Origin: a virus
DNA: 43,318 bases
IMG/VR virus record: IMGVR_UViG_2554235473_000004
Location: 1 to 43,318 of that record
Direction: 5' to 3' (one strand)
Shown: positions 33,871 to 41,701 of the stretch, one piece after another
How the letters are laid out: each line of letters opens with the position of its first letter
Position numbering within the stretch: the first letter of the stretch is position 1
Program-made: the position numbers and the translations under genes
The notes under the pieces: model-generated
Databases searched by the model: none
What the model saw: the letters and a program-made list of their open reading frames with translations, nothing else
What the model was told of the DNA's origin: nothing

Positions 33871-34731
33871 CTACAGTTGCTGCACGTCGGTCACCCGCCA
33901 GTCACACCGGCAGTGCCCGTGGACCGGGATCGGGTTCTGGTTTTGCGCCTCCTCAAGCGTCCACGACTGCGCCGAGAGCGCAAGGCAGCGCTCGCACACC
34001 CGGTCGTCGCCGGCGTCCTCGTAGGAGACGTCGACGTCGAGTTGGACGTCGGCCCGGACGCGGTCGTAGGCCGTCAGCTTCGTCGTCGAGTACTGGTTGA
34101 CGACCCGGCCGCTGGCGGTCGAGGTGACCTGTGACTTGTAGACCTGAGCGCGCTCGGTGACGTCGGTTATCAGCTGCGTCTTCGAGACCTCGCCGGCGAC
34201 GCCAGCCGTCACGAGCGAGCGCGCATCACTGGCGTAGTCGTCCATCCACGACGCGACCCGCTGGCGTGTGTCCTCCTGCGAGAGGTCGATCTGCGTCTGG
34301 ATGGTATCCTGCTCGACGACGTCGTCGACGGGGTTGGGGTCGACGTCGAACCCCCGGAGCTCGCCGTTCGCCTTTCGGACCGCCGTTCGACTGGCATGCT
34401 CGAACCAGTCGCGGACCTTCCGCGCCTCGATTGGGTCGAGGACCTCCGTCTGGATCGCCTGCTGGATCCAGCTGTCGAAGCGCCGGGCCGTCTCCGCCGA
34501 CGAGAGGTCTGCCCAGCGCCCGCCGACGCCGTCGCCCAGTCCGAGGGCATCCTCTTCGACGAGTAGCTTCCGGACGTCAGCGTTCAGATGGCCGATCCGG
34601 CCACGGAGGAATCGGGCGAGGGACCGCTGGATAGAGATGGTACTCGTGGGGTCGACACGATTGGGCTCTTCGAGGGCGTAGTCCGCGGCTGTCACTTGGT
34701 GGCCGTGGGTATGTGCCCGGGCACTACTCAT
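33871..34731 (-). CDS. Minor head protein (Mu gpF/SPP1 gp7-like)
   Basis: AGDDRVCERC...IPVHGHCRCDW. Confidence 0.88.
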   Translation of the reverse strand: MSSARAHTHGHQVTAADYALEEPNRVDPTSTISIQRSLARFLRGRIGHLNADVRKLLVEEDALGLGDGVGGRWADLSSAETARRFDSWIQQAIQTEVLDPIEARKVRDWFEHASRTAVRKANGELRGFDVDPNPVDDVVEQDTIQTQIDLSQEDTRQRVASWMDDYASDARSLVTAGVAGEVSKTQLITDVTERAQVYKSQVTSTASGRVVNQYSTTKLTAYDRVRADVQLDVDVSYEDAGDDRVCERCLALSAQSWTLEEAQNQNPIPVHGHCRCDWRVTDVQQL

Positions 34732-36295
34732 CGTCCACCTCGCCGCCGTCGGCGACGGCCTCCTCGCCGGTGCCGTACTTCGCGGTCATCTCCTCGACGT
34801 CGCGAGCGCCGTCGGCCGCCGCAGATGCCTCCTCAAGGGCGGCCGCGTCATCAGGCGCCTCGTCGAACTCGCTCGGGAGGATGCCGTCCTCGATGTACTC
34901 GGCCTGTTGCTGGCGGGTGAGCATCGCCTCCGGCATCCCGCCGGTCCACTTTTTGAGGGCCTGCGCCCGCGTGTGCTGGATCTCCGCCTGGTCCTTCTGA
35001 CTCAGCTCGTGTAGCGGCGTCCACTCCACGGAGTACGATCCGGCGCCGTTCGACGGCGGCGAGACGACGCTGTACTCGATGAGCCGGTCGATCAGCTCAC
35101 GCACGATCGTCGGCGTCACGAACTGCTCGCGACGCTCTTGGATCTTCCCGTACCACTCCTTGAGGTCCTGCGTGGTCGCCCGTTCGCCGGTCTCGTTCCC
35201 TTTCAGAACCGACTGCGGGATCCCCGTCTGGGCGCTGATGGCCTCGACGTTCGGGTCGATCACCGGCTGCGGGTCGATGTCCTCGCCGCCGAGCGACTTG
35301 ACGTCATCGGCACCGTGCGTCCGGAGGACGTTTTCGAGCCCGGACTGCCAGCGGGCGAGGTGCTCCCGCATCTTTTCGCCATTATCCTCGACGTCGAACT
35401 CCGGCGCGATGTTGATGTTGATCCCCCACGCCGACGCCCGGTAGGCAAGTTCGCCGGCGCTCCCGAGCGTCTTTTCGATGTCGACGAGGTTGTTGTAGAC
35501 GGGTTGCTGGCGCGGGATGCCACGGACCTCGTCGTCGAGAAGCTGATCCGAGTGGATGTGGATGACGCGCGAGTGATGGACCCACATCGAATCGGGGCCG
35601 CCCTCGTCGATGGCGAACTCCTCGTCGTTCTCGTCGCTGAGGTCGAGCTCGTAGCGGATGGGTTCGCCCCACCGCCCCGAACCGGGGCCGCCAAGCTTGA
35701 CCTCCTCAATGGATTCTCGGGAGTACGGGCGGAGGCCCTGAAGACCAGTCGCGCCATTGACCTCGGCGCCGAAGCCTTCTTTCGGATCGCCATCGCCGAC
35801 ATCGTCCTGCTCGACGTCGTCGAACTCCAAGACGAGGACTCCGAACGTCCCGATGCCGGCGAGCATGTCCGCCCGACTCGCGTAGCTCCACAGGTCGTGG
35901 TCCCGGAGGAGGTCGTCGACGTCGCTCTCGAACGCAGTCTCGTTCTCGCCAGCCTCGGCGTCGTCGACGATCCGTGGCGGGTCACGCCACGACGTCATCG
36001 ACGGAAGGAAGGTCACTGCGTAGGCATACGGGTTCCGCAGCGCCATCGCGTAGTAGTCCGTCGCCGTCGGATTCGGATCCCAGTCGAAGACGTCGTAGTA
36101 GTCGTTGACCCCCTCGGCGTCGATGTTCTCGCCGAACTGGTTTTGGAGCGCCTCCCGCATCGCCATGTCGACCTGCGCTGCGGCGAGCAGCTCGTCCTCT
36201 CGGGCCTGCGCCTCAGCCTGAGTGTCGCTCGTCGCCTCAGTACCCCTATCGACGTCGCCGGCGTTGATACTCTCAGTGTTGTCTGTGTCAGTCAT
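34724..36295 (-). CDS. Portal protein (DUF1073-like)
   Basis: RADMLAGIGTFGVL, VHHSRVIH, ISAQTGIPQSVLKGNETGERATTQD; follows TerL. Confidence 0.92.
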   Translation of the reverse strand: MTDTDNTESINAGDVDRGTEATSDTQAEAQAREDELLAAAQVDMAMREALQNQFGENIDAEGVNDYYDVFDWDPNPTATDYYAMALRNPYAYAVTFLPSMTSWRDPPRIVDDAEAGENETAFESDVDDLLRDHDLWSYASRADMLAGIGTFGVLVLEFDDVEQDDVGDGDPKEGFGAEVNGATGLQGLRPYSRESIEEVKLGGPGSGRWGEPIRYELDLSDENDEEFAIDEGGPDSMWVHHSRVIHIHSDQLLDDEVRGIPRQQPVYNNLVDIEKTLGSAGELAYRASAWGININIAPEFDVEDNGEKMREHLARWQSGLENVLRTHGADDVKSLGGEDIDPQPVIDPNVEAISAQTGIPQSVLKGNETGERATTQDLKEWYGKIQERREQFVTPTIVRELIDRLIEYSVVSPPSNGAGSYSVEWTPLHELSQKDQAEIQHTRAQALKKWTGGMPEAMLTRQQQAEYIEDGILPSEFDEAPDDAAALEEASAAADGARDVEEMTAKYGTGEEAVADGGEVDDE

Positions 36296-36300
36296 GATGA

Positions 36301-37638
36301 TCACCAGGTTCCCGAACCGCCGGCGCCGTCGTCCTCCTCGATATACCGGTCGCCCATGATGGCGTACCGAAGTGCGTCAAGTGCGTGATCTGTCGCCCGG
36401 CTCGTCCCGACGTCCTCCTCTTTGTAGCTCTGGAACTCCTTGATCAGCTCCGTACAGTCCTCGAGGACGATGAGCCCTGGACGGCCATCGACGTCAGTGT
36501 CAAGAACGCTCCGCATCTCGTCGATACCCTCATCGAGGTCCTTCGTCGCGGCGTGGGCCTCGTAGCCAGCGGCCCGGAATTTCTGGATGTGCTCAGGTTC
36601 GTGGTCAGAGTAGAGCTCGCCCGCGGGTTTCTCTTCTCGCAGCATCCACCCCGAACCATCACTCGGATCGATGAGGTGCTCGACTGGCTGCTGACTCTCG
36701 TAGTACAGATCGAGAACGACGTACTGGTCCGCCGGCGTCTTGCCGATCTCAAGGAGAACGCGCGGGTCTTTGAACCCGTAGTCGTAGCCGTAGAGCCGCC
36801 AGCCGCTCCGAATCTCGACGTCGTCACGGTTGCGAACGTGCGTCGGCCGGGAGAACGTCGAGTAGACGAGGCCCTCCGCAGCGGCAAAGCCGCCGGCGAG
36901 GCCTTGATCTTCCTTCTCCGTTCCTTCGAACTGCCTGACGAGTTTCTCCTTCTCGGGGAGGAACGGGTTGTTCCGCGAGTCGGCAACGACGTTGATGAGC
37001 CGCGTCGGGAGGTCGTCGTCATCCGGCGTCACCTGACGCTCGACGAAGTCGTAGTACTGGTTGTACCCGTTTCCCGTCGACGTCCAGAGCGTGACGTTCG
37101 GTCCATCGCGGGTGCGCTGCCGGGAGAGCAGCATCCGGTTGAGGTCGAAGATGTCGGTGTGTTCGTAGTGAGCGACCTCGTCACACCAGATGGCGTTGAA
37201 TTCCCCACCGGCGTACCGATTCCAGACGTCGGCGCTTCCAAGGCGGACCACGGAGCCGTTGAACCACGTGATCCGGCGCTCGTTCCGATTGTACTCGGCG
37301 ACGAACGGCGAGTTCTCGGGATCACCGCCCTCGTCGGGAACAGTGTTCTCTCCAGGGAGTTCCTCGAAGAAGACCTTGTACGTCGTCGGGCCGCCCTTCT
37401 TCGAGTCCGGTGCGATGATCAGGTTGTCGGAGCCGGCGACCTCCGTCGCCTTCTCCATGATCCATCGCGAGCCGAGGATCGTCTTCCCCGAGCCGTATCC
37501 GCCCCGGAAGTTGACGACGTCGTACTCGCCCGACTCCAGCGCAGCGATGGCGTCGAGTTGGGCATCCCAGAACCCCCAGTCGAGGTCGAGGGTGCCGCCC
37601 GTCGTGTCGACCGCGATGCCCTCACTCGTTATCGACAT
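36301..37638 (-). CDS. terL: Terminase large subunit
   Basis: Walker A GGYGSGKT, Walker B IWCDE, nuclease motifs GYDYGFKDP and DHALDALRY; start MSITSEG. Confidence 0.96.
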   Translation of the reverse strand: MSITSEGIAVDTTGGTLDLDWGFWDAQLDAIAALESGEYDVVNFRGGYGSGKTILGSRWIMEKATEVAGSDNLIIAPDSKKGGPTTYKVFFEELPGENTVPDEGGDPENSPFVAEYNRNERRITWFNGSVVRLGSADVWNRYAGGEFNAIWCDEVAHYEHTDIFDLNRMLLSRQRTRDGPNVTLWTSTGNGYNQYYDFVERQVTPDDDDLPTRLINVVADSRNNPFLPEKEKLVRQFEGTEKEDQGLAGGFAAAEGLVYSTFSRPTHVRNRDDVEIRSGWRLYGYDYGFKDPRVLLEIGKTPADQYVVLDLYYESQQPVEHLIDPSDGSGWMLREEKPAGELYSDHEPEHIQKFRAAGYEAHAATKDLDEGIDEMRSVLDTDVDGRPGLIVLEDCTELIKEFQSYKEEDVGTSRATDHALDALRYAIMGDRYIEEDDGAGGSGTW

Positions 37639-38335
37639 CGGTGTCCTCCTCGGTGACGCGGTGGTGAGTGATCGACACGTCGAACCCGCCGCTGTGTTCG
37701 AGGTCGCCTTCGAGTTCGATCTTCTCGGAGTACACGCCAAGCGCGTCGCCCTTCGCTTGGAGGTGCTTCGACTGCTCCTGGCGGGCCATCGCCTGCTGTT
37801 TCAGATCGTCGACGTCGCGTTCGAGGCCAACCATCTCCGTCGTGTACGTTGGCGATCCGTCGATCGCGCGGACCGGGTAGCGTTCCCCGGGCCTCACCTG
37901 TGTCCGCTGGTCGTCGTCGAACCGGATCACGACGTCGCGCTCTTCGGCCCAGTCAGGGCGGCCGGGGTCGCCCGGTTCGACGAGCTCCCACGCCGGCCAC
38001 GACATCGGGTTCTCCCGGTCTGCGGGAACAGTATCGGTCTTCGGAACCGTGCGTCGGATGGGCTCGTCATCGGTCGCCTTCGCCTCACTCTCGCGAGCTC
38101 GCTTGTACATCCGCTCTTCCCGCTCGGCGATCTGGAGACGGACGTCGGCGTGTTCCGCCTCGATCTGCTCGATGACCGCCTCCTTCGGCTCCTCGTTGAG
38201 GTAGCCCCGGATCGTCGATCGTGCGTACGACCCGATCCCCTCCTCTTCGAAGCGGTCCCGGATCTGCTCGACGTCGAGGTTATCGAGATAGTGCCACTTC
38301 AGGGCGAGTGTGACACGTCGGTCGCGGGTGGACAT
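37622..38335 (-). CDS. terS: Terminase small subunit
   Basis: N-terminal HTH-like region, coiled coil, directly upstream of terL. Confidence 0.75.
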   Translation of the reverse strand: MSTRDRRVTLALKWHYLDNLDVEQIRDRFEEEGIGSYARSTIRGYLNEEPKEAVIEQIEAEHADVRLQIAEREERMYKRARESEAKATDDEPIRRTVPKTDTVPADRENPMSWPAWELVEPGDPGRPDWAEERDVVIRFDDDQRTQVRPGERYPVRAIDGSPTYTTEMVGLERDVDDLKQQAMARQEQSKHLQAKGDALGVYSEKIELEGDLEHSGGFDVSITHHRVTEEDTDVDNE

Positions 38336-39198: not shown

Positions 39199-39374
39199 GA
39201 TCAGCGGTACTTGCGAAGATTAAGCGGGTCGTCCATCGTGTGCCGCGGTGGGATCTGGCTGTAGTCGTAGCATACGAGTGGTCGAGGAGGGTGCCGGCCT
39301 CAAGCAGAGATACGGACGTTGTTTAATTCTTCTTGAGATAAATTTAAATCGGCAGTAAATATGACATATAGTAC

Positions 39375-39857
39375 ATGTCAGACTGGAACTGGATAACTGA
39401 CGAGGGTTCAGTAGGCGAACTTCCAGTTCGTGTCCTCCCCGATCAAACTGCTGAATTCTTGGATTTTGTTGAGGGGGTTATGATTAATTACGAGAACACC
39501 ACCAGCCAGTCACTAGGTGCGGGTGACAGGTGTATCCTGACAGCCAAAATCGTAGATGTTGATATCAACCAGCAGCCTGTATGGATTACTGTAGAGCCAC
39601 TAAATGTAGAGTTTCTTCGACGGTCTGAGCCCAGCGATTCTGAGATCGACGATATGATGGTCTACTTAGACGGGGCACGAAAGCGCCGCGAACGGGAGCG
39701 CAGAGAAAAACAATGCGAAAATTGCGAGACAATTGACTCTTCTACTCGCCTCTCTGTTGAGACTAAGATTGGTAACCGAGAGCTACACCACTGTGCCAAC
39801 TGCGAGCGGTTGCTCTCTGTAGATGAATACGAGCGGTGGATGAGCGCAAACCGATAG
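39375..39857 (+). CDS. Hypothetical protein with C-terminal Zn ribbon
   Basis: CENC...CANC; AT-rich; own AT-rich promoter region at 39320-39370. Confidence 0.8.
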   Translation: MSDWNWITDEGSVGELPVRVLPDQTAEFLDFVEGVMINYENTTSQSLGAGDRCILTAKIVDVDINQQPVWITVEPLNVEFLRRSEPSDSEIDDMMVYLDGARKRRERERREKQCENCETIDSSTRLSVETKIGNRELHHCANCERLLSVDEYERWMSANR

Positions 39858-39907
39858 CGTTTGAGAACCAGTTCTCACAACTTATTCTGAGTTGGGTGTT
39901 TGTAATA

Positions 39908-40858
39908 TTATTCAGAGGTAGCTACTTGATCCAGACTCTGTAGAGACTGAACCGCCTGCTGCCGAACATCTGGCGCCGTATCCTCAGCTAAATGCTGAAG
40001 TACTTGACTAGATGCCTCACAGTCGAGATTCCCCAACGCGAGAGCAGATGCCTGTCTAACATCAGGGTCTTCATCTTTGGCTGCAGGGGAGATGGCCTTC
40101 ACATACGCGGTCTGTGAGTCACCAGCTGTACGACCGATGTTTCCGAGGGCAATCACTACGCCTGTCTGGACTATTGAGTCTGAATAATCAACAAACGAGG
40201 CTAGCTGTTTTGAGAATGGCTGGAACGCCGGCGAATAGTCACGAGAATACCACTTGATTGTACTTGCGGCAAGCTGACGCTCCAGCTTATTCTCATTGTG
40301 TAGTGATTGGATCAGCGTCTCAGCAATTGACGATGCGTCTCTATTGCTTTGTTTGAGGACTTTTCCAGGCGTTCCTTCTGAGACGTGATTGATCAGTTCA
40401 AGAGCGCCACATCTAATCTCTGGTTGATATGAGTCGACGTACTGAAGCGTATCAGCGGCCCCCTCTGGAGTTGGAGATGTTTTCAATGACCGTATCTGCC
40501 TGAGACATCTATAGTCGAGAATTCCCAGTATAAGTCCCCAAATCGAAGCGACTGTACCAATCAAGAATGTAACAATACCAACTAAACCAACAAGTTCGAC
40601 ATCACTCGAATTAAGCATTAAACAGAACATGCCCGTTATAAAAAACAAAGAGTGTGGACTTCCTAGTGCGGAACTGAGCTTGGAAACGTTGACCTCTCTT
40701 TGATTGCTGCCTGACTTGTACATGACAAGTCCAGGAACATAGAACACGGACGGTGATTGATATATGTCATCAATAGCTGCAAACCATTGACGCCTGAAGT
40801 GATTTACAACACGACGGTGGATGTTCACTCTTGAACCACCAGCATACTCAATCAGCAT
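39908..40858 (-). CDS. Membrane-anchored HEAT-repeat protein
   Basis: Two TM segments followed by HEAT-like repeats (DEDPDVRQASALALG; DTAPDVRQQAVQSL); AT-rich. Confidence 0.8.
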   Translation of the reverse strand: MLIEYAGGSRVNIHRRVVNHFRRQWFAAIDDIYQSPSVFYVPGLVMYKSGSNQREVNVSKLSSALGSPHSLFFITGMFCLMLNSSDVELVGLVGIVTFLIGTVASIWGLILGILDYRCLRQIRSLKTSPTPEGAADTLQYVDSYQPEIRCGALELINHVSEGTPGKVLKQSNRDASSIAETLIQSLHNENKLERQLAASTIKWYSRDYSPAFQPFSKQLASFVDYSDSIVQTGVVIALGNIGRTAGDSQTAYVKAISPAAKDEDPDVRQASALALGNLDCEASSQVLQHLAEDTAPDVRQQAVQSLQSLDQVATSE

Positions 40859-40990
40859 TTGACAGACACAATAATTGTGTCGTTTATTTTTACTTAAATT
40901 ACTGTCAGGCAGGGACCACAGGAATAGGAAGCATTGGGAAGGAACGCCTGCTGTTGGTCAGTAAAATAAGCGGCATTATCGCCTATCTGG

Positions 40991-41007
40991 AGTGGAAACG
41001 GAGGGGT
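40991..41007 (+). promoter_or_regulatory. ORB-like element with G-string
   Basis: AGTGGAAACGGAGGGGT matches the 3' part of the archaeal ORB consensus. Confidence 0.4.
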
Positions 41008-41026
41008 ATGTCAGTGTATCTCGTAG

Positions 41027-41126
41027 GGCGACGCCGGGGATCGAACCCAGCACGGGATGGGTCCGTCTCAGGCTTTGGTTTCGCCTGAGCCCATAGGACC
41101 GTCCGTGACCACACCAGTGGCGTCGC
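41027..41126 (-). tRNA. Degenerate tRNA-like element with an intron-like insertion (anticodon CCT/Arg if spliced)
   Basis: 7-bp acceptor GCGACGC/GCGTCGC, GGG-TTCGATC-CCC T-arm, CGTGC variable loop, extended anticodon arm with a CTCAGGC/GCCTGAG hairpin; poor D-arm. Confidence 0.55.
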
Positions 41127-41129
41127 AAG

Positions 41130-41299
41130 GCGACCGGACTTGGCAGTTTAGACCGAGCAAGATACGATCGACGCGAAGCTCCTCACGCTCACGCACAGCA
41201 TGTCGTGGTAGTACTGCCGGTCGCTCGTGTGGCTCAGCACTCCCTCGGGCGCTGACCTGGCCTTCACAGTGAAAACTGTGAACGCCACGCCGTCGGGAG
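41130..41299 (-). ncRNA. Candidate structured ncRNA between the two tRNA-shaped elements
   Basis: Long hairpin at 41240-41299; second domain closed by GCGACCGG/CCGGTCGC plus CAGT/ACTG. Confidence 0.5.
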
Positions 41300-41300
41300 A

Positions 41301-41372
41301 TGGATCGACTCGGAATCGAACCGAGGCACGCGACGTCTTCAGCGTCGTGCTCTCCCACTGAGCTATCGATCC
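41301..41372 (-). tRNA. tRNA-Phe(GAA), 72 nt, CCA not encoded
   Basis: GGATCGA/TCGATCC acceptor, GCTC/GAGC D-stem, CGACG-CTGAAGA-CGTCG anticodon arm, CTCGG-TTCGATT-CCGAG T-arm. Confidence 0.95.
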
Positions 41373-41701
41373 CGTCGCTTCTCGCGGCGAATCGCCTCGC
41401 GAACGTTCCGCAGTTGGCCTTCGGTCCAGCCGTTCGCGAGCGCGGTCTCTCGGTCGATGCCCTGCGGGTAGCCCGTCACGACCTCTCGGCTCTGCGGGTC
41501 GAGCACGAGGCGGTAGTGGATGCCGTCGACCCACTGCTCGGTCGCGACGTAGCCGTTGCCGAGTTGGTGGCGAACACCCTCCTCGATACACGCCCGGATG
41601 GCCTCGCCGTTGAGGTGGCGGCCGGGTTTCCGGACGCGGTCGCCGAGGTGTGGCGTCGGGCTCCACGCGCTCGGCTCGCGCGGCAGTTCCTGTGCGCTCA
41701 T
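41363..41701 (-). CDS. Small protein with DUF4258/RelE-like (BECR) RNase pattern
   Basis: PTPHLGDRVR...AIRACIEEG...YRLVLDPQSREVVTGYP; stop codon lies inside tRNA-Phe. Confidence 0.65.
   Translation of the reverse strand: MSAQELPREPSAWSPTPHLGDRVRKPGRHLNGEAIRACIEEGVRHQLGNGYVATEQWVDGIHYRLVLDPQSREVVTGYPQGIDRETALANGWTEGQLRNVREAIRREKRRDR

Follow-up and report, generated by a model that had tools for sequence, protein, structure and literature searches.

The 43,318 nt of viral DNA analysed here (the window) raise the question of what occupies the stretch that follows a tRNA-Phe gene on the minus strand, where a preliminary description had proposed a highly structured RNA of about 170 nt bracketed by two tRNA folds: is this a genuine conserved RNA, how would its ends be generated, and what might it do? 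The window corresponds to G000:C26:170675-213992 within a 3.65-Mb genome of 69 contigs. Humcor1, an inducible provirus of Halorubrum coriense Ch2, has been placed at nt 170617-217091 of AOJL01000026 in a 69-contig draft (PMC7911831 Table 6), and was induced and characterized as a BJ1-related siphovirus (PMC7911831). From the agreement of coordinates and contig number with that report, rather than from a sequence comparison, we infer that the window is Humcor1.

The stems that had been named are all present at 41127-41300 on the minus strand (CTCCC/GGGAG, the tandem GA/GA, GGCG/CGCC and TGGC/GCCA, along with the pairings TTCACAGT-TTTC-ACTGTGAA, GCGACCGG/CCGGTCGC and CAGT/ACTG), and two tRNA folds do bracket the RNA. 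On the 5' side the discriminator A of tRNA-Phe (41301) directly adjoins RNA nt 1 (41300), while on the 3' side a tRNA-like element (41126-41028, with its discriminator at 41027) follows after CTT. The 174-nt extent given to the RNA agrees with the predicted cleavage sites, but the unit as first delimited left out the tRNA-like domain and the CCUU linker: the complete cassette runs from the tRNA-Phe through a two-domain RNA of 174 nt and the invariant CCUU linker to a non-decoding tRNA-like domain of about 100 nt (Table 1).

Table 1. Features of the cassette and its surroundings (positions are those of the window; RNA nt 1 is position 41300)
Feature	RNA nt	Position	Strand	Basis or remark
112-aa ORF		41363-41701	minus	PHROG 14318; stop codon inside tRNA-Phe
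tRNA-Phe(GAA), 5' flanking tRNA		41301-41372	minus	ARAGORN; Rfam RF00005, 67 bits
Domain 1	1-61	41240-41300	minus	covariation, alignment
Linker	62-76	41225-41239	minus	ends in nearly invariant CACGA, followed by G77, the first P4 base
Domain 2	77-171	41130-41224	minus	P4 covariation; constrained fold
CUU, last three bases of the CCUU linker		41127-41129	minus	between P4 and the tRNA-like acceptor
Non-decoding tRNA-like domain	175-274	41027-41126	minus	covariation in all six helices; CM R1, 121.7 bits
Conserved trailer		40985-41026	minus	alignments; BJ1 annotation
Terminase gene		36301-37740		
Portal gene		34724-36304		

Domain 1 is built from the helix P1 (2-6/57-61), a GAC/CGA internal loop, the helix P2 (10-13/50-53), a conserved AGGUCA bulge (nt 43-48) and the P3 hairpin (14-26/31-43) with a U-rich loop. 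The columns A73, G75 and G77, at and just beyond the end of the linker that follows, are invariant in our alignment A4. Domain 2 is closed by P4, an 8-bp helix (GCGACCGG/CCGGUCGC, 77-84/164-171), and its interior of 60-150 nt is lineage-specific, ending in a conserved CAAAC and a CAAGU bulge; in the window copy the constrained fold of this interior contains three hairpins. The first C of CCUU is nt 171 (41130) and belongs to P4, so that the tRNA-like domain starts 3 nt after this helix; the columns C171, C172, T173 and T174 are invariant or nearly so, and the CUU is a predicted RNase P leader with a U at position -1. Conservation within the cassette is highest in the CCUU linker and the tRNA-like domain, both of which, together with P4, are always present. 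Domain 1 is the least constrained part, and in L058 and L063 it is swapped in its entirety for another hairpin. Two details of the preliminary description hold in part: the tandem GA/GA is present in the window but its loop is turned into Watson-Crick pairs in one subgroup, and of the architecture given for domain 2 the closing helix is conserved but the inner hairpins vary by lineage.

Among isolates, the only relative recovered by a distant blastn search of the phage collection was Halorubrum virus BJ1, in which the match covers the tRNA-Phe and the whole of the unannotated 318-nt gap before ORF43 as a block of about 400 nt with 75% identity. Even in this pairwise alignment, the hairpin, P4, the acceptor, the T stem and the tRNA-like domain's long arm carry compensatory changes. 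A search of 401 genomes of the same class recovered the family in 10 other genomes of the same genus, and further members were found in IMG/VR contigs, in genome contigs of 10 named Halorubrum species and in 22 metagenome contigs. CM R1, a covariance model of the tRNA-like domain, additionally detected divergent copies in a further two genera of the family, one of them full-length with a mini-tRNA upstream. The RNA family thus spans BJ1 as well as BJ1-like proviruses from two other genera and no fewer than 11 Halorubrum species; the related virus CGphi46 is without the cassette. In the host genome CM R1 finds the tRNA-like domain in a single copy, and neither the covariance model nor nhmmer recovered a copy of the RNA elsewhere in its 3.6 Mb. 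About a quarter to a third of the matches to shorter patterns were due to chance and were removed using nhmmer. The 60 full-length loci correspond to 37 distinct sequences, to which L064 was added to give 38.

Folding energy, which had been offered as one check on the RNA, does not stand out: the 174-nt piece on the minus strand has a minimum free energy of -70.7 kcal/mol as against -63.7 +/- 4.5 for dinucleotide shuffles (z = -1.56), 13 of 200 shuffles fold as well, the plus strand yields z = -0.71 and the unconstrained fold omits the P1 and P2 pairings. As this measure was not discriminating, covariation was used instead, with alignments prepared by MAFFT without structural input, stems taken from the window sequence and controls in which the 3' partners were slid by 1-3 columns. 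The stems were 93.3% paired in 23 sequences; in A4, with its 38 distinct sequences, 96.5% of the cells are paired, as against 39-46% (about 43%) in the slid controls, and cells in which both partners have changed number 236 as against 5-24. P4 is paired in all 38 sequences and displays three covarying pairs (C-G/U-A, G-C/A-U and C-G/A-U/U-A); P4, the acceptor, the mini D stem, S1, S2 and the T stem have two to three covarying pairs each and are 98-100% paired. P2 is 98.5% paired and covarying, the base of P3 is 95% paired with G-C/A-U exchanges, and P1 displays wobble variation only. G.U pairs outnumber A.C mismatches by 114 to 27, which identifies the minus strand as the RNA strand. Conserved blocks are interrupted by 1-2-nt indels (alignments A2 and A4), and hence there is no conserved ORF, as had been supposed. 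Covariation and conservation thus demonstrate a conserved RNA structure on the minus strand. The proposed alternative hairpin GTCGC-CTT-GCGAC did not survive the same analysis, being 72% paired, equalled by 488 of 500 shuffles and devoid of covariation. Likewise, a pseudoknot between CACGAG of the linker and UCGUG of domain 2 is unsupported (helices of 5.7 bp within the same sequence and 5.5 bp across sequences), and complements of the conserved loops that could pair in antisense occur within the provirus at chance level only. As a separate observation, domain 1, the linker, the interior of domain 2 and the arm of the tRNA-like domain each come in two or three sequence types among the 38 relatives of A4, and these are combined differently among viruses, suggesting recombination between cassettes.

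The tRNA-like domain is typified by an acceptor of 6 bp, not 7, which yields an 11-bp acceptor/T stack. Its mini D hairpin has a 4-bp stem and a loop of 4-5 nt that keeps UGG, and its T arm of 5 bp, with three covarying pairs and the G53-C61 pair, bears the loop UUCGAUC, which conforms to the UUCRANY pattern. In the place of the anticodon arm there is a 57-nt arm of three helices (S1 and S2 of 5 bp, S3 of 7 bp) in which two loops are conserved, the asymmetric CUAUKGG/AC and the apical GARAYCMAA. The coaxial acceptor/T stack, the T loop and the GG in the D loop, all of which are shared with archaeal tRNAs (RF00005), suggest an L-shape. The domain differs from RF00005 in its 6-bp acceptor, in its small D arm and in having no 7-nt anticodon loop with U33 (the apical loop is 9 nt long and contains no U), no variable loop and no strict bulge-helix-bulge (loops of 2/4 and 5-6/2 nt flank a 5-bp helix). 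Those bases that might be taken for U33 and an anticodon covary inside helix S2, and hence no anticodon is conserved; the discriminator base also varies among relatives. Consistent with this, ARAGORN calls the tRNA-Phe and not the tRNA-like domain, the latter has no match to RF00005 even at E <= 10, and its best Rfam score is 18.6 bits with tRNA-Sec, for which the gathering score is 47. As judged from its sequence, the domain does not decode; binding to some factor is suggested by its conserved loops.

A comparable picture emerges on the 5' side, where a tRNA or an anticodon-less mini-tRNA ends at the base immediately before RNA nt 1 in 37 of the 38 homologues with enough upstream sequence; in the most divergent copy, L065, no tRNA-like element was seen upstream. 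This element is tRNA-Phe in most relatives, tRNA-Trp(CCA) in one, tRNA-Asn(GUU) in two, tRNA-Val(GAC) in one and a mini-tRNA in 11, and the GAC (Val) anticodon is Phe-derived, lying one base away from GAA (Phe). The mini-tRNA is about 47 nt long and lacks both the anticodon loop and the D arm, keeping an acceptor, a small hairpin and a T arm; it is 94.4% paired across the 11 relatives, with seven covarying pairs as against 0-2 in slid controls. As the identity of the decoder changes while the tRNA fold stays, selection acts on the fold rather than on decoding. The conserved upstream feature is therefore, on comparative grounds, a putative tRNA-shaped cleavage signal, as a tRNase Z site requires. 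Switches of tRNA identity at the same position were observed among L011/L053 (Halorubrum sp. HHNYT27), L022, L067 and L078. Both the upstream mini-tRNAs and the 3' domain are non-decoding acceptor/T-arm folds that adjoin the RNA, as in the t-elements of haloarchaea. In Haloferax volcanii, tRNase Z cleaves the t-element that precedes 5S rRNA, and an RNA flanked by two tRNA-like t-elements is released in vivo by RNase P and tRNase Z (PMC4326828). Since a tRNA-shaped element ends at nt -1, excision of the RNA by tRNase Z and RNase P would be the best-supported mechanism.

The genomic setting bears on how such a transcript would arise. At the loci examined the cassette always lies between replication genes and packaging genes: an MCM helicase gene, several small genes and a gene for a 59-aa protein (PHROG 37636) are followed by the cassette, an optional gene for a HTH and exonuclease-like protein (BJ1 ORF43, PHROG 284), two small genes, and the genes for the small and then the large terminase. 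This fixed synteny indicates that the cassette marks the junction of the replication and packaging modules. The downstream gene gives hits to PHROG 284 and GerE, and among the neighbouring genes neither a recognised RNA-binding family (Pfam and PHROGs) nor an adjacent conserved protein partner of known RNA-binding fold was found. By eye, no AT-rich archaeal-type promoter is visible before the tRNA, and the preceding ORF terminates inside the 5' end of tRNA-Phe; together these features suggest co-transcription with the upstream genes.

On balance, we consider it probable that these observations describe a non-coding RNA cassette of BJ1-like tailed viruses of Halorubrum and its close kin, which is excised by the tRNA enzymes of the host. 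It would form the last part of the minus-strand transcript of the replication-gene operon, in which tRNase Z would cut behind the discriminator of the upstream tRNA, creating the 5' end at 41300, and RNase P would cut before G175 of the tRNA-like domain, creating the 3' end at 41127; the released RNA would then be nt 1-174, matching 41300-41127 exactly. A further cut by tRNase Z may free the tRNA-like piece and thereby provide a new 5' end for the packaging-gene mRNA. We infer these cleavages, as well as any function in trans of the RNAs so released. The 6-bp acceptor with its 11-bp stack could impair RNase P or tRNase Z, as could the CCUU leader, which may pair with an upstream GAG. Beyond excision, a more specific and improbable proposal is that the RNA acts in trans as a component of a viral RNP, whose tRNA-shaped domain, with its invariant loops, would dock onto a host factor that handles or targets tRNAs and decoy or redirect it. 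Candidates for this factor would include RNase P, tRNase Z, the CCA-adding enzyme and a defence-system anticodon nuclease; such an effect would operate in the switch from replication to packaging.

Some of the potential impediments to cleavage also lend weight to a single intact RNA of about 275 nt, in which the tRNA-like domain would serve as a 3' module for stability, CCA tagging or docking rather than as a cleavage signal. Nowhere in the cassette is the sequence more invariant than in the CCUU linker and at the P4/acceptor junction, a GAG...CUU pairing could mask the RNase P site, the acceptor is limited to 6 bp, and domain 1 is replaceable whereas P4 and the tRNA-like domain are always kept. 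However, tRNA-shaped folds with a U at -1 are generally good RNase P substrates, and Haloferax t-elements are cut on both sides (PMC4326828); we regard an uncut RNA as rather unlikely. Less probable still is that the locus acts purely in cis, as a platform for tRNA punctuation that would separate the early message from the late packaging-gene message and set the 5' end of the latter, with the excised RNAs being by-products. A cis-acting role would fit the constant place directly upstream of ORF43-like or c4-c9-terS-terL genes and the gap before the next ATG, which has neither an AT-rich promoter nor a Shine-Dalgarno sequence, and BJ1 ORF43-48 were described by the BJ1 authors as being without ribosome-binding sites (PMC2194725). 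Yet a tRNA or mini-tRNA would suffice for such punctuation, leaving unexplained both the approximately 170 nt of covarying helices and the invariant loops AGGUCA, CAAGU, CUAUKGG and GARAYCMAA that are kept across genera; these unpaired motifs speak for a role beyond that of a cleavage site.

The remaining alternatives are far less probable than either of these. The preliminary description had suggested that the RNA might be the partner or antitoxin of the protein encoded at 41363-41701, to which a RNase fold had been attributed. Its AlphaFold model (pLDDT 93, 29 homologues) best matches colicin E5, CdiA-CT, BrnT and RelE ribonucleases (VIA-align Z 5.0-6.1), while Foldseek returned nothing at E <= 0.001 and DUF4258 was weakly matched by two of the 29 homologues; a RelE/colicin-E5-like RNase fold is therefore plausible for the modelled protein, as had been proposed, but the scores are only middling. 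The gene adjoins the RNA, however, only in this provirus and in one metagenomic lineage (L033/L088), while about 60 loci carry at that position an unrelated gene for a 59-aa protein (hhalign probability 3.9% for homology to the 112-aa protein), and with a distribution restricted to two lineages the RNA-protein partnership is not supported. Moreover, the RNA is single-copy and without the tandem repeats of a type III ToxI-like antitoxin. For a Y-RNA-like partner of Ro60, the 100%-complete host genome lacks TROVE (PF05731) while control genomes are positive, and there is no match to Rfam YrlA (RF02553); we thus consider an antitoxin or Ro60 partner very improbable. A decoding tRNA that contains an archaeal intron, such as tRNA-Arg(CCU), is likewise a scarcely credible reading of the 3' element. 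The acceptor, the canonical T loop, the GG-containing D loop and a UAU bulge after a helix are compatible with such a tRNA, but it was rejected since the U33 and anticodon bases in S2 covary (G-C/C-G, C-G/G-C/U-A), the loops do not amount to a pair of 3-nt bulges around 4 bp, Rfam gives no tRNA match and the discriminator varies. Nor do we give more credence to a site acting at the DNA level (attP, pac or an origin) instead of an RNA. Temperate haloviruses often have tRNA-like attP sequences (PMC8707807) and the region is near the terminase genes, but the compensatory changes seen in ten helices and the 4:1 ratio of G.U to A.C speak against this, as does the position of the cassette about 5 kb inside the provirus and not at its end (PMC7911831 Table 6), which indicates that it is not an att site.

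The 59-aa protein, which is absent from the window, is a more widespread candidate. It is acidic, has a C-terminal VVDVDGxTYRVxES motif and is encoded, for example, at L059:1107-1286 and at about 60 other loci. Its gene almost always directly precedes the cassette, even in the divergent genera represented by L064 and L065, and terminates within the tRNA or mini-tRNA. The protein could conceivably be a partner of the RNA.

Returning to the excised cassette that we favour, its processing logic is already known from t-elements and MALAT1/mascRNA, while the RNA family itself, like the elaborate non-decoding tRNA-like domain that it contains, appears to be new. Only the tRNA-Phe gives Rfam matches, both at the gathering threshold across the whole window and at E <= 10 within 40800-41500; RNase P, SRP and ribozymes are among the families without a hit. 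The BJ1 paper reports the tRNA alone at this locus (PMC2194725), the Humcor1 paper makes no mention of the RNA (PMC7911831), and the literature searched contained no description of it, so that the claim of an undescribed RNA stands. The closest parallels are the haloarchaeal t-elements, in which non-decoding tRNA-shaped folds likewise adjoin a functional RNA as sites for tRNase Z or RNase P; examples are the tRNA-like structure upstream of 5S rRNA in Haloferax volcanii and an engineered icrRNA flanked by t-elements (Hoelzle 2008 and 2012, cited in PMC4326828). The mini-tRNAs of the 11 relatives have the same layout of acceptor, small hairpin and T arm. Unlike the engineered construct the cassette is natural and viral; further, its 5' flank is usually a real tRNA, its 3' flank is more elaborate, with a conserved 57-nt arm, its cargo is a conserved 174-nt RNA, and its cleavage is a predicted one. 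In MALAT1 and NEAT1_2, RNase P cuts at the tRNA-like fold of mascRNA or menRNA, generating the 3' end of the upstream RNA (PMC8457004, PMC9777231). This arrangement is similar in that a tRNA-like fold lies 3' of a structured non-coding RNA and the released piece is non-decoding, but these RNAs are eukaryotic, nuclear Pol II products whose 3' end is guarded by a triple helix, with no sequence or family relationship to the cassette.

Viral precedents include the stable RNAs species 1 and 2 of phage T4 (rnaC and rnaD), which are non-decoding, tRNA-linked and matured by host tRNA enzymes, and the tRNA-miRNA units of murine gammaherpesvirus-68, in which small RNAs linked to tRNAs are likewise produced by host tRNA-processing enzymes. 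Both belong to viruses of another domain of life and have no detectable homology to the cassette, and the T4 RNAs lie inside a tRNA cluster whereas the halovirus cassette lies between gene modules; to our knowledge, the function of the T4 species 1 and 2 RNAs is still not known. GOLLD and ROOL are also structured viral non-coding RNAs of unknown function beside tRNAs, but they are bacterial and 500-800 nt long, and no Rfam match to them was obtained here even at E <= 10.

We know of very few non-coding RNAs of archaeal viruses, and found no other that is defined by covariation across dozens of genomes. Should the decoy or docking proposal be true, no tRNA-mimic effector RNA would have been described for an archaeal virus before this one. 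More generally, the family offers a natural test of whether haloviruses carve RNAs and mRNAs from long transcripts by means of host tRNase Z and RNase P, and adds to this a non-decoding tRNA mimic with conserved loops, for which a binding partner can be searched directly. Tractable members are available, with Humcor1 being inducible in Halorubrum coriense Ch2 (PMC7911831) and BJ1 being a cultured virus. The 318-nt 'intergenic' gap of BJ1 and the equivalent gaps in proviruses should be annotated as an RNA gene.

Finally, the region immediately downstream displays variability of its own. In BJ1 and most relatives the conserved trailer leads into the ATG of the ORF43-like gene (HTH and exonuclease-like), but in the window this ATG is lost (CCAGAT/AGG at 40985/40984) and low-GC DNA comes next. 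About 1.7 kb of such DNA (39300-40984; 46-50% as against approximately 65%) stands in place of the ORF43-like gene of BJ1, with its junction exactly at the lost start codon. On its minus strand it encodes a HEAT-repeat protein of 316 aa (39908-40858; Pfam HEAT_2, E = 6.6e-16), and it contains a 160-aa ORF on the plus strand (39375-39857) that belongs to no family. L011/L053 have a different insertion at the same point downstream of the cassette, and this point therefore looks like a hot spot for accessory genes.
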